Origin: a virus
IMG/VR virus record: IMGVR_UViG_3300033141_005269
Coordinates: 13,416 to 77,415 of that record
Direction: 5' to 3' (one strand)
DNA: 64,000 bases
Below, one piece after another: positions 29,558-32,824 of the stretch; positions within the stretch are counted from its first letter, which is position 1; every line of letters begins with the position of its first letter. The notes beneath the pieces were generated by a model. That model was not told the origin of the DNA. It saw nothing but the letters and a program-made list of their open reading frames with translations, and ran no database searches. Both the position numbers and the translations under genes were made by a program.

Positions 29558-32500
29558 TTAAGCTGCAATCGCATCTTTTAATCCAATCGCTATTTTGCTG
29601 AGTGTTTTGCGATAATGAGGTTGGTGGAGTATCAACTGTTGAAGAAGTTTTATTAATTTCTGTCTTTTCATCGAAGTGCAAGTTATGACCAGAAATTCAG
29701 TTCGCATGGAAGACATTACATCGATGAGCGGAAAAGCTTTCTTCATATCCTTCGCTTTGCTGAGCCAACTCGCGAGCATAATCGCACTCATGTATTGAGC
29801 ATCGAACGCCAAGTTACGAAAGCTTTCTGGTTTCTTGATTAATTCGTTTATGTTGACTTGAGTTTTCATGAACGCTTGAAATTTGGCTCCAACTTCTTGC
29901 CCAACATATCCTTTTATATCATCTGGTGAATCAAAGCCTTCTTTCAATTCGAGAGCGAGCCAAGACCATGTTATGCCGGAAGCTTATAACTTCTCTCGGC
30001 ACGGGATATGGGTCAAGTGTCTCGCGTCTTCTCGGTGGCATCATTAGATAATTTTCGTCCTGAAATGCTATTTCCCGGCTATAAATGGTTTTCCCTTCTT
30101 TTTTGGCATTCATTCAAAAGTTTGAGAGCAACACCCTTTTTGATTTTAAGAAATGGAATTATCGACTCAAGAAAAATTATAATATCGGTCATACGTTGAA
30201 TTCGCCAGTTCCAACAAATGCCATATTTTCCATGTTTAGAACCATAAATGAATCCGCCGACCTTATCTTTCAGCCAAAGCATGATTTCCTTATTTTTATT
30301 TGCAATTCCTAAATGGTGTTGATAGCCCTTTATTTTGTCGAAATGACAATAACCTTCTCCATCAAAAAGACCAGCAATATAGAGGAGATCATCTTTGGGC
30401 GGAATTTTGATTGTTTGTTCGAATAGTTTCGGTTTTCTAGTCTTTAGTCCAATACTTTCCAAATATTCAGAAATTATCTTTCGATCGCGATGAAGAAATT
30501 TAGTAATTTGTCTTATCGTGAATCCTTTTGAATATAGTTTTCTAGCTTGCTCTTTTTCGGCATCTGAGAATTTTTTTCTTCGCCTTTTAATTTGATCCTC
30601 AAACTTCTTTAATACGCGAATTACAGTTGTAACCGCGCAACCAGATCTTTTAGCGATTTCCTCTAACGAAAGACCCTTTCTATAAAGTCTAAGGATCGAT
30701 TGATTACGCCTCGAAATTTCTGATCTTTTCTCTTTGGAAAGTTTCGGACTTCTTCTCATTTCATTTGGTAGAGTTTTCAAAATTCGCGAAAGAGTAGAAT
30801 GACCGATACCATATTTAGAAAGAATCTTTTTCCATTTAATTCCATTGATGTAATCGGAAACTATTGCTTTTCGGGTGTCCTCAGATAACTTCATTATTGC
30901 CACAATAATAAAAGAGGGAAAACTCACTTATAAACCTGTAGGAAAGCATATGTTCGCTTGTCCCAAGCATCGCCATATTTCTCATCCATCCACTTCCGCC
31001 AGTCATCTCAGCGGTTATAAGGAAAAGCCCACATATTCTTCTATTTCATTTATGACCATGGAAACTTTATCGCGTTTAATAACCAGATAAGGAAGAATTA
31101 GCTTCAAGATTTTGCCTACTTCAAGAAGAGGGTATTTCGCCCAAGCATAAACATTCTTTTTGGAGGTATATCCCGCTATTTGCTTGCCCTTTGGATCGGA
31201 AATTGTTATTCCGCCACCAAATCTACTTACTAGCCAAGACATGATATCTTTTGATGTATTATAAACAGAGAGTCTGACTTCTAAAGTTTCTTTTTTCCAA
31301 CGTTTCCGTCGTTGAGTTACTAACGAACCCTCGCCATCGAATAAACCTGCAAAGTAAATTAAATCTTTTTCTGGAATATTATTCCTCATCACTGGATGTT
31401 TGAATCGATGGCGGGTTATTCCATGCTTTTCAAGAATATATAAAATCGTAGTGTTCGAGACTCCAAGTTGACGCGCAACCTCTTTGGCATTATGGCAAGC
31501 TAAATAAAGGCGAATTACTTCCTCTTCATTAAGTTTAGATTTAAATTTTTTCGCTCGGAGTTTCCATGACATCTATTTCAACCATAAGAAAGTAGTGGGC
31601 GGTAACTTATAACCTTTACTGTTGGTGGTTGGATGCGAATGATTTTAAATCGCGAGGCTAACGGGGCAGAAATTAAATGTGCAATGCTGGAATGTTCAGG
31701 GGCATTGCCCGCTGCGATAACCATAGTTCCAGAACTGAATTGAACAAAGCCCGCTAGATGGTCAAGAATTACTGGATAGCTAGCAGCTTCGACATCGGGC
31801 CTATTAATTTGTGTGAATTCGTCCGCGAATAGTATTCCAGAAGTGCATGAATGCAACACAGCCCAAGCGATTCGCCGGAAGGCTAAACCTCAGCCAAATT
31901 TTCTATTATAATACTCGACTAGGATAGGATACTTTTCTTCAAGAAATCTTATTACTTTTTCCGCTTGCTTTCGCTTTACGATTAGATATGGCAAAACCGA
32001 TTTTAGAATGATGTAAGCCTTGAACCGATCATAAGTTTGCCAATGATAAACTATTTCTTGATGGAAAGAATAAGGCTTTGAGGCGTAATAATTAGATCCA
32101 AATTTCTTCTTCAGCCATTCAGCTAACTCTTTCGAGGTATTTGCAACTCGCACGCCTATTCGCCTTTGATAATCCCGTCCCTTCCATTTATCGAATTTGA
32201 TATTGCCATCAGCATCAAGCATACCCGCAAAATAAATTAAGGAATCTTTGTCTGGTAACTCGAAATTTTTAATAAACGGTCTTCTCGTCTTCGGCTTAAT
32301 CAAGCCAAGTCTAATTGCTGTCATCCTTACACAAGCGGAAGAACATCCTATAATCTCTGCAATTTGTTTATAAGTTAAATTCGAAGTAATTAAGAACTCC
32401 TTGATTTTGTTTACTTTGAACTTATCTAGTCGGTTCATAATAGGAAATATAGCCTCATGGGATTTAAACCCTCCTGTGGCTCGTAGAATGAAGTATGATT

Positions 32501-32824
32501 ATGGCTTCTGGGAATGCCTATCAAATCCTCTGGGGCAATTGTTGATAAGCGGATATCAGTTAGCACGAAGTAATTATCTGGCGCGTTCAATATTTCGAAG
32601 AACTCTTTTTCTCCATCGTGAGAAATCACGAACTTGCCTTGTTTCCAACGCAATCGCATGCATATGAACTTCTTGCCGAGTTTTTGTGCGATTTGTTCCG
32701 CGGCTTCATAAACCGAAATTGATTTCCCGATTCCTGGCGCACCTAGTACGAGCAAAGCTCGTCGCCTTGCTACTTCACTGAAATATCTTCTGACTATATA
32801 ATTCCGAAGCTCGGAAATCCTCAT
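29558..32824 (-). CDS. MoxR-type AAA+ ATPase, spliced: exons 32824-32476, 31870-31616, 31006-30938, 30070-29995, 29972-29558 (387 aa)
   Basis: Walker A GAPGIGKS, DIRLS..EDLIGIP, Walker B ILFADEF, AAGN, R-finger ASRF, PTVNDW, sensor-2 PVPRTW. Exon sum 1164 nt, no internal stops. Confidence 0.92.
29973..29994 (-). other. 22-nt BHB micro-intron (MoxR intron 4)
   Basis: GU-GCCG-AG^A-GAAGU-UAUAA-GCUUC-CGGC-AU^A-AC; removal repairs the frameshift to give VPRTWSW. Confidence 0.9.
30071..30937 (-). mobile_element. BHB intron (867 nt; MoxR intron 3)
   Basis: AUGCUU-UCCU-AC^A-GGUUUAUAAGUGAGUUUUCCCU ... AGGGAAAACCAUUUAUAGCC-GGGA-AA^U-AGCAU; joins AFL-L-AFQDE. Confidence 0.9.
30079..30894 (-). CDS. Intron-encoded endonuclease: three HTH repeats + LAGLIDADG
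   Basis: Three HTH-like units (e.g. GLSLEEIAKRSGCAVTTV), LYIAGLFDGEG, IPFLKIKK. Confidence 0.88.
   Translation of the reverse strand: MKLSEDTRKAIVSDYINGIKWKKILSKYGIGHSTLSRILKTLPNEMRRSPKLSKEKRSEISRRNQSILRLYRKGLSLEEIAKRSGCAVTTVIRVLKKFEDQIKRRRKKFSDAEKEQARKLYSKGFTIRQITKFLHRDRKIISEYLESIGLKTRKPKLFEQTIKIPPKDDLLYIAGLFDGEGYCHFDKIKGYQHHLGIANKNKEIMLWLKDKVGGFIYGSKHGKYGICWNWRIQRMTDIIIFLESIIPFLKIKKGVALKLLNECQKRRENHL
31007..31615 (-). mobile_element. BHB intron (609 nt; MoxR intron 2)
   Basis: CAGU-AA^A-GGUUAUAAG ... CUUAUAACC-GCUG-AG^A-UG; joins PPTV-N-DWRKW. Confidence 0.9.
31015..31572 (-). CDS. Intron-encoded HTH + LAGLIDADG homing endonuclease
   Basis: KEVARQLGVSNTTI; IYFAGLFDGEG; LPYLVIKR. Confidence 0.9.
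   Translation of the reverse strand: MSWKLRAKKFKSKLNEEEVIRLYLACHNAKEVARQLGVSNTTILYILEKHGITRHRFKHPVMRNNIPEKDLIYFAGLFDGEGSLVTQRRKRWKKETLEVRLSVYNTSKDIMSWLVSRFGGGITISDPKGKQIAGYTSKKNVYAWAKYPLLEVGKILKLILPYLVIKRDKVSMVINEIEEYVGFSL
31871..32475 (-). mobile_element. BHB intron (605 nt; MoxR intron 1)
   Basis: CG-AGCC-AC^A-GGAGGGUUUAAAUC ... GGUUUAGCCUUCC-GGCG-AA^U-CG (one A.G pair in the central helix); joins FYEP-L-AWAV. Confidence 0.85.
31890..32438 (-). CDS. Intron-encoded HTH + LAGLIDADG homing endonuclease
   Basis: LTYKQIAEIIGCS; IYFAGMLDADG; LPYLIVKRKQA. Confidence 0.9.
   Translation of the reverse strand: MNRLDKFKVNKIKEFLITSNLTYKQIAEIIGCSSACVRMTAIRLGLIKPKTRRPFIKNFELPDKDSLIYFAGMLDADGNIKFDKWKGRDYQRRIGVRVANTSKELAEWLKKKFGSNYYASKPYSFHQEIVYHWQTYDRFKAYIILKSVLPYLIVKRKQAEKVIRFLEEKYPILVEYYNRKFG

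Follow-up and report, generated by a model that had tools for sequence, protein, structure and literature searches.

How could a virus obtain a working protein from a gene that its annotation presents as a series of disconnected pieces? The question is raised by positions 32824 to 29558 (minus strand) of a 64,000-nucleotide stretch of IMG/VR virus record IMGVR_UViG_3300033141_005269 (positions 13,416 to 77,415 of that record), which we call the window and to which coordinates refer unless another sequence is named. Here the gene for an AAA+ ATPase appears as open reading frame (ORF) fragments alternating with three larger ORFs. The whole record measures 77,415 bp, has direct terminal repeats, and is for the most part covered by the window, and the large terminase, Mu-type portal, and sugar-modification enzymes found in the annotation of the window and genome indicate that this is a tailed virus. 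The original prediction, made from the DNA letters alone, read the locus as a multi-intron, endonuclease-bearing viral gene whose introns are of the bulge-helix-bulge (BHB) type of archaeal tRNAs, a reading that is now supported by alignment to homologs, by alleles in related loci, by Rfam searches, and by matches of the intron ORFs to LAGLIDADG proteins. We consider it very probable, from the sequence evidence given below, that the ATPase gene and the adjacent gene for a partner protein with a VWA domain, both belonging to an archaeal tailed virus, have been colonized by five BHB introns that are removed by host tRNA-splicing enzymes.

In each bulge, the archaeal splicing enzyme EndA places its cut behind the second base, and applying this rule to the minus strand removes 32475-31871, 31615-31007, 30937-30071, and 29994-29973 (introns 1 to 4, of 605, 609, 867, and 22 nt). 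The 1164 nt that are left form a multiple of three, and the five joined exons encode a 387-aa protein with no internal stops, reproducing the frame that had been proposed from these cuts. Exon 1 (32476..32824, 349 nt) contains the Walker A motif GAPGIGKS and has 69-72% identity to the homologs P0002 and P0001, and exon 2 (31616..31870, 255 nt) contains the Walker B motif ILFADE and the sensor-1 region AAGN. Exons 3 (30938..31006, 69 nt, 23 codons) and 4 (29995..30070, 76 nt, 25 codons) have no start signals of their own, and exon 5 (29558..29972, 415 nt including the stop) encodes the helical lid and C-terminal domain. The observation of an ATPase gene cut by four BHB-type introns is therefore confirmed at the level of sequence, and the spliced junctions predicted for introns 1 to 4 (^ marks the splice site here and below) are GAGCCAC^TCGCTTGG, ACAGTAA^ATGACTGG, TTCCTAC^TAGCATTT, and GCCGAG^AACATGG.

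Because these cuts had been chosen without any homologs, alignment to homologous proteins tests the junctions independently. With exon 1 only as the query, and with longer proteins allowed, we recovered the uninterrupted 389-aa homolog P0002, and a scan of metagenomes recovered a 39.6-kb contig (L001) with an uninterrupted gene of 62% identity. The spliced ATPase aligns to P0002 without a gap at FYEP^LAWA, PPTV^NDW, YAFL^LAFQDENYL, and YPVPR^TW, the last of which has its conserved Arg codon split by intron 4, and it is likewise gap-free across all four junctions against the intron-less L001. The joins originally read as FYEP-L-AW, PPTV-N-DW, AFL-L-AFQ, and VP-R-TW thus match homolog sequence, and the gap-free alignment that had been suggested as a check was obtained with both references. 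For intron 1 only one cut register is possible, and a shift of one base would exchange a conserved Leu. The spliced protein retains 39 of 39 invariant family columns in an 11-member alignment, so the exon decay that had been named as a sign of a pseudogene is not seen. Searches for close relatives with exon 1 among viral contigs and by tblastn among GenBank phages gave no match.

The same rule resolves the next gene, where the Pfam DUF2201_N profile is divided between two ORFs (profile positions 13-93 in ORF 29681-29205 and 94-261 in ORF 28501-27332) with a LAGLIDADG ORF between them. Removing 29239-28480 on the minus strand (intron 5, 28480..29239, 760 nt) joins exon 1 of the partner gene (29240..29531, with which homologs align from residue 4-8) to exon 2 (27332..28479, which contains a zinc ribbon and a VWA/MIDAS region in addition to the second part of the profile). 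The product is a 479-aa protein with DUF2201_N metallopeptidase-like, zinc-ribbon, and VWA regions, and its junction WNLVT^DSLNND (predicted spliced sequence GTGACAG^ACTCTTT) is gap-free against L005, L004, L003, and L023, four related metagenomic loci that have no intron at this position. Two genes represented by nine ORF fragments in the annotation are in this way restored to proteins of 387 and 479 aa that are gap-free over five junctions.

The structural signature of the introns is a 4-bp helix formed by exon bases -6 to -3 and intron bases -6 to -3 from the intron end, flanked by bulges of the form NN^A (5') and AN^N (3') and followed by an intron-intron stem. Intron 1 (31871..32475) has the helix AGCC/GGCG, with three base pairs and an outermost A·G, bulges AC^A and AA^U, and an 8-bp inner stem; intron 2 (31007..31615) has CAGU/GCUG, bulges AA^A and AG^A, and a perfect 9-bp inner stem (GGUUAUAAG/CUUAUAACC); and intron 3 (30071..30937) has UCCU/GGGA, bulges AC^A and AA^U, an inner stem with one bulged U, and the outer helix AUGCU/AGCAU. 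The ORF-less intron 4 (29973..29994) has GCCG/CGGC, bulges AG^A and AU^A, and a 6-bp hairpin, GAAGUU/AGCUUC, with one G·U pair, and intron 5 has UGAC/GUCA, bulges AG^A and AA^A, and an inner stem UCGCAU/AUGCGA that extends further. Central pairs are thus complete (4/4, with 3-nt bulges) in introns 2 to 5 and number 3/4 in intron 1. Inner stems comprise 4-9 contiguous pairs, or up to ~15 bp with a bulge, and the outer exon-exon helices are short, with 1-2 contiguous pairs except in intron 3 (5 bp with a 1-nt bulge). For all five window introns, imposing the BHB on the fold costs 0-1.4 kcal/mol relative to the unconstrained minimum, and for intron 2 the BHB is itself the unconstrained minimum-energy fold.

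The BHB is defined by two 3-nt bulges and a 4-bp helix; alongside the full hBHBh' form, relaxed forms (hBH, HBh', and BHL) are recognized, and relaxed forms are cut only by the (alpha-beta)2 and epsilon2 types of EndA (PMC6379350). Several of our motifs class as relaxed because their outer helices are short, and the window motifs accordingly range from canonical to relaxed and are not all textbook examples. The motif originally described at each break therefore holds for its positions and its 3-nt bulges, and falls short in the full 4-bp helix that had been claimed for intron 1 and in the short outer helices.

We examined this pairing over 13 independent sites, of which five are those of the window's introns and eight come from relatives. 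At 12 of the 13, all six core pairs (four central and the first two inner) are present, and five of the six are formed at the remaining site, whereas six of six pairs arose in just 2.6% of 156 mismatched combinations of 5' and 3' halves, and none of the 13 sites reached six pairs when the 3' cut was shifted by 1-3 nt. The first two outer pairs are formed at 92% and 77% of the sites, compared to ~38% in the control. When positions were ranked by a contiguous-pair score, the true junction took top rank in introns 2 and 4, was within the top few in intron 5, and ranked lower in introns 3 (with its bulged stem) and 1 (with its mismatch). All tabulated introns have a 5' bulge ending in A and a 3' bulge starting with A, and the intron ends often share A^GGNUUAUAAG..CUUAUAANCC (in the window and in L011, L023, L028, and L035).

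Metagenomic relatives provide a further view of these elements. The ATPase gene is interrupted in 17 related loci, 16 of which give junctions that obey the rule and are gap-free against P0002. In P0002 numbering the occupied sites are residues 103, 134, 142, 172, 180, 202, 238, and 250 in the relatives and 116, 201, 224, and 249 in the window, and a tree shows that they are clade-specific, with the window's four sites in none of the sampled relatives. The partner gene, too, has BHB introns in relatives, one of 65 nt in L023 and one of 686 nt, with an endonuclease, in L029. With cuts behind the second bulge base, in-frame, gap-free joins are obtained at 15 sites in two genes, made up of 18 junctions at 12 ATPase sites together with intron 5 and the two introns in the relatives' partner gene. 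The relatives' introns range from 13 and 16 nt, which are bulge-helix-loop-like, up to 719 nt, and some sites are occupied by elements of different size: at site 238 a 31-nt intron (L028) and a 719-nt endonuclease-bearing intron (L036) have identical ends, and at site 134 a 49-nt intron in four loci equals the 313-nt L033 intron minus an internal 264 nt, neither of which contains an endonuclease ORF. Intron-less alleles, which had been suggested as something to look for in related viruses, do exist; L006, with flanks ~95% identical, lacks exactly the 49 nt of site 134. The pairing also changes in a compensatory manner. L011 and L004 have uccg/CGGA as their central helix at site 180, and L012 has ucag/CUGA, a synonymous change of a Ser codon in the exon that is paired with a matching change in the intron, and one inner pair covaries among relatives as U·G, U:A, and G:C.

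Four of the five window introns contain an ORF on the same strand. The intron-1 ORF (31890..32438, 182 aa) encodes helix-turn-helix (HTH) and single LAGLIDADG (YFAGMLDADG) elements, and its ATG overlaps the TGA reached by read-through from exon 1 (ATGA). The intron-2 ORF (31015..31572, 185 aa; HTH and LAGLIDADG motif YFAGLFDGEG) starts 5 nt past the read-through stop, and its TAA lies within the 3' strand of the inner stem; the intron-3 ORF (30079..30927) has 282 aa from a GTG that overlaps the read-through stop (GTGA; alternative ATG at 30894) and carries a repeated HTH and the motif YIAGLFDGEG; and the intron-5 ORF (28455..29174) carries YLAGLIDGDG. An alignment places these four ORFs and three from relatives in one family with N-terminal HTH domains and a single LAGLIDADG domain, in which A75, D79, and G82 are invariant across all seven members (motifs GLFDGEG, GMLDADG, and GLIDGDG). 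Over its positions 66-215, the family profile matches I-CreI and I-MsoI chains (1e-14 to 1e-29), it also matches the archaeal rRNA-intron endonuclease 3e54 at 5e-10, and Pfam LAGLIDADG_3 matches 7 of 7 members at E <= 0.1 (best 2.6e-6). Identity within the family is just 20-33%, indicating that the intron ORFs are not recent copies of one another.

The intron ORFs are, to judge by these profiles, single-motif I-CreI-like LAGLIDADG endonucleases with HTH domains, and they are presumably homing endonucleases, as the original prediction had it, with predicted cleavage of intron-less alleles. They also fill their introns nearly completely, as had been noted: those of introns 1-3 stop 8-19 nt short of the 3' splice site. 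The stops of the intron-2 and intron-3 ORFs fall within the 3' strand of the inner stem, where the palindromic UUAUAA supplies the TAA or TAG, and that of the intron-1 ORF falls directly upstream of this strand. The G+C content of the introns is 34-37%, compared to 43% in the exons. Inteins and split inteins were also considered as the elements at the breaks and were rejected, with the ORFs lying out of frame after stops and the exon ends carrying no extra residues. The intron-5 ORF has no stop within its intron; on linear RNA it continues for 25 nt beyond the 3' splice site, and if the intron were circularized the frame would reach a stop after 759 of the 760 nt, a single base ahead of its own ATG. 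Elsewhere in the genome, upstream of the window, C1:4078-4866 encodes a fifth, free-standing member of the intron-endonuclease family (E 9.5e-11), and beside it a 31-nt BHB-like hairpin (C1:4920-4950, plus strand; GCCA/UGGU, bulge AAU) lies directly 3' of ATGAGTGTTGCCAAA-TGA. A 689-aa ORF running off the window start (7-2076, plus strand) has a LAGLIDADG_3 match at residues 169-219 (9e-10) and no match to the hidden Markov model of the intron-ORF family, and this ORF may represent an intein rather than an intron endonuclease.

In the mechanism that we propose, the last exon bases of the pre-mRNA pair with the intron end, as seen in the sequence, to form the 4-bp helix and two 3-nt bulges, and host EndA would cut after the second base of each bulge. 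This EndA would most likely be of the broad-specificity (alpha-beta)2 type, since some motifs are relaxed. Host RtcB would then ligate the exons and circularize the intron. The HTH-LAGLIDADG endonucleases of four introns would cut intron-less alleles in co-infecting relatives, with repair copying the intron in the process of homing; their translation from unspliced RNA may proceed by termination-reinitiation, which is suggested by the three ORFs whose starts overlap the read-through stop or follow it by 5 nt. Loss of the ORF would give rise to mini-introns such as the 22-nt intron 4, which we propose persist because they are still spliced. Beyond this genome, we think it likely that a mobile family of homing-endonuclease BHB introns colonizes protein genes of archaeal tailed viruses, with at least 15 sites in one MoxR-VWA module, and that the resulting proteins depend on host splicing, which would compete with endonuclease expression.

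A mechanism of this kind would require an archaeal host. The virus itself encodes no EndA or RtcB homolog detectable in a whole-genome search. Bacteria are not known to have EndA. Of 401 sampled Thermoproteota genomes, 65 contain a match to the terminase (best 1.5e-29, full length), as do 7 of 401 sampled Bacillota genomes, where matches are mostly partial. The nearest Atlas cluster of the terminase is mostly Archaea, with Bathyarchaeota commonest, and genomic homologs of the ATPase include Thermoproteota and Sulfolobales metagenome-assembled genomes (MAGs). These matches point to a host that is likely archaeal, probably a member of the Thermoproteota, and possibly one of the Bathyarchaeia.

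Could the endonuclease genes instead simply have broken their targets, leaving the ATPase and its partner as pseudogenes from which nothing is spliced? The genes are indeed fragmented as annotated, selfish endonuclease genes frequently insert in phage genes, and one interruption in a relative (the second in L023) looks degenerate, yet decay is difficult to reconcile with a frame open over 1164 nt in which all invariant residues (39/39) survive, with precise interruptions in diverged relatives that show pairing-preserving compensatory changes, with mini-introns of 13-64 nt in otherwise intact genes, and with two adjacent genes being hit in an apparently complete, terminally repeated genome, and we regard this explanation as highly improbable. 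Somewhat less improbable, and still unlikely, is that the introns are removed from RNA by means other than host EndA, either an unrecognized ribozyme or a nuclease and ligase of the virus. Such introns as have been known from phages are group I or II elements that splice themselves, and the virus has a PF09414 RNA ligase (8044-8898) and a metallophosphoesterase; against this, the virus lacks an EndA homolog, the ORFs come to within 8-65 nt of the intron ends, and introns of 13-22 nt are too short to contain a ribozyme. Rfam covariance searches with Infernal covered the window and five related intron-bearing loci without a match at the gathering score, and over 27000-33500 they gave no relevant match, group I and II included, even at E<=10, which bears out the earlier statement that no group I or II core is visible. 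What is conserved among the introns is the geometry of EndA, with cuts 2 nt into each 3-nt bulge.

Bridging of the breaks at the level of translation or protein has its own precedents. In T4 gene 60 the ribosome bypasses 50 nt. There are also known cases of genes that were fractured by homing endonuclease genes and are put together again by split inteins (PMC2677866). Here, however, the exons abut homolog sequence with zero extra residues, leaving no space for intein halves; exons 3 and 4, with 23 and 25 codons, have no start signals; the endonuclease ORFs lie in another frame, with stops ahead of them; and a bypass would be needed at 15 sites that share only BHB geometry. We therefore give bridging, whether by bypass or frameshift at the short insert or by split inteins at the endonuclease-bearing ones, hardly any credence, and excision of BHB introns by host tRNA-splicing enzymes is the explanation that we favor.

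Several observations nevertheless weigh against that explanation. The bare motif is abundant, with ~9000 matches per strand of this genome when a 6-bp inner stem is required, and a genome-wide BHB scan under stricter rules returned as many matches as shuffled DNA; adding an ORF-merging filter left 57 hits versus 46-48 in frame-shifted controls. Because the bare motif is not rare, structure alone proves nothing, and the significance of the introns comes from position. The original argument that four in-frame joins from one fixed rule are unlikely by chance is upheld by position, controls, and homolog alignment. The helix mismatch of intron 1 and the short outer helices are such that a strict alpha4-type EndA might not cut. 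Splicing is predicted here from DNA, and no sequencing run was listed for 29400-33000. Support for homing and cleavage consists of patchy distribution and presence/absence polymorphism in relatives, with activity predicted from sequence, and the intron-2 ORF has one homolog, 36% identical, among proteins of near lengths at E <= 1e-5. The archaeal host is one that we infer, and the best genomic homolog of the ATPase is in a MAG labelled Bacillota. Finally, the second interruption in L023 (L023:8190-9160) has the same 5' end as the L036 intron and no recognizable 3' BHB half; a direct repeat of 9 nt (TGTGGACAG) stands on either side of it, and it has eight exon residues swapped for four, and encodes an endonuclease with a C-terminal zinc ribbon, and it may be degenerate.

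The identity of the interrupted ATPase was also considered. It had been called a MoxR protein, a label that family models do not bear out: Pfam gave weak AAA or AAA_16 matches at best, with the MoxR-class models AAA_3 and AAA_5 not reached, NCBIfam gave no match to a MoxR model, and matches in a PDB profile search were limited to the P-loop region of Clp and VCP. Fold and neighborhood, on the other hand, agree with the label. An AlphaFold model of the homolog P0002 (predicted local distance difference test score 84) has NorQ (E 1.5e-8, template modeling score 0.62) and CbbQ as its best PDB matches, both of them MoxR-class ATPases that work with VWA partners, and here the next gene encodes the DUF2201_N and VWA protein. 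The modeled fold and the gene neighborhood together support a MoxR-like ATPase, in place of an assignment by family models.

A BHB intron in the cbf5 pre-mRNA of Crenarchaeota was reportedly described by Watanabe in 2002 and by Yoshinari in 2006. The literature confirms the background on which the original prediction drew, namely, mRNA introns in cbf5 and endonuclease-bearing BHB introns in rRNA. Within the literature we searched, cbf5 is the one case in which BHB splicing of mRNA, or indeed any protein-dependent splicing of mRNA in prokaryotes, has been confirmed, with no other archaeal mRNA intron confirmed; cbf5 introns, at 16-44 nt, are too short for a nuclease gene, and their relaxed motifs are linked to hetero-oligomeric EndA (Yokobori 2009, PMC2738675). 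Like the window introns, that of cbf5 is a tRNA-type BHB intron that interrupts a protein-coding gene and needs EndA for its removal, and its small size is near the 13-64 nt of the mini-introns found here. In contrast, cbf5 is a single cellular gene with one ORF-less, vertically inherited intron, whereas the genes described here are viral and have 4 + 1 introns, four of five with endonuclease genes, in a family that occupies 15 sites.

The literature we searched places BHB introns with endonuclease genes in rRNA genes, and in those archaeal introns (I-DmoI, I-PorI, and PDB 3e54) the LAGLIDADG ORF fills most of the intron, as it does here. ORF-less deletion derivatives at the same sites have been noted for them as well (Nomura, as cited in PMC2738675). 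The host gene of the rRNA introns is a cellular structural RNA, whereas here it is a viral mRNA in which the reading frame must be restored, and the endonucleases here further differ in having their start coupled to the exon read-through stop and in combining a single motif with an N-terminal HTH. Phage group I introns (T4 td, nrdB, and sunY; Bastillevirinae, PMC11878797) have the same ecology, being mobile, endonuclease-carrying, patchily distributed elements in conserved regions of viral genes that are rendered harmless by splicing, but they are self-splicing ribozymes, whereas the introns described here have no detectable core and their removal should need host protein enzymes. The putative 12-bp introns of an archaeal virus genome (Peng et al., via PMC2738675) are likewise short insertions in viral protein genes; they are 12-bp indels that keep the frame, and neither splicing nor a BHB structure has been demonstrated for them, in contrast to the insertions here, which are frame-shifting or stop-bearing, obey the BHB rule, and include full-size endonuclease-bearing members.

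We found no description of endonuclease-bearing BHB introns in viral protein-coding genes in a literature search that covered few subscription journals. What appears to be new is a viral gene with four BHB introns, three of them with predicted homing endonucleases, together with an intron family in its relatives. Should this hold, tRNA-type introns can be mobile and invade mRNAs, forming an enzyme-spliced counterpart of phage group I introns, and viral gene expression and host range would be tied to the tRNA-splicing enzymes of the host. It would also offer a concrete system for testing the idea that BHB introns descend from endonuclease-carrying introns that ceded splicing to EndA (Tocchini-Valentini 2011, via PMC6125680). 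In archaeal virus genomes, gene callers will systematically fragment or miss such genes.

Two further features of the window are recorded here. The RNA ligase-family protein mentioned above (8044-8898, minus strand; PF09414, 1.2e-14) and a calcineurin-type phosphoesterase (12041-12871, minus strand) could form an RNA healing-and-sealing pair, and any role of this pair in joining the exons is purely speculative. At ~19272-19394 (minus strand), where a gene has its 3' end, the unconstrained fold is a textbook hBHBh' structure with the helix CGGC/GCCG, bulges AAU and UGA, and outer helix CUGGGU/ACCCGG, which makes this segment, on the basis of the modeled fold, a further candidate mRNA intron in this virus.

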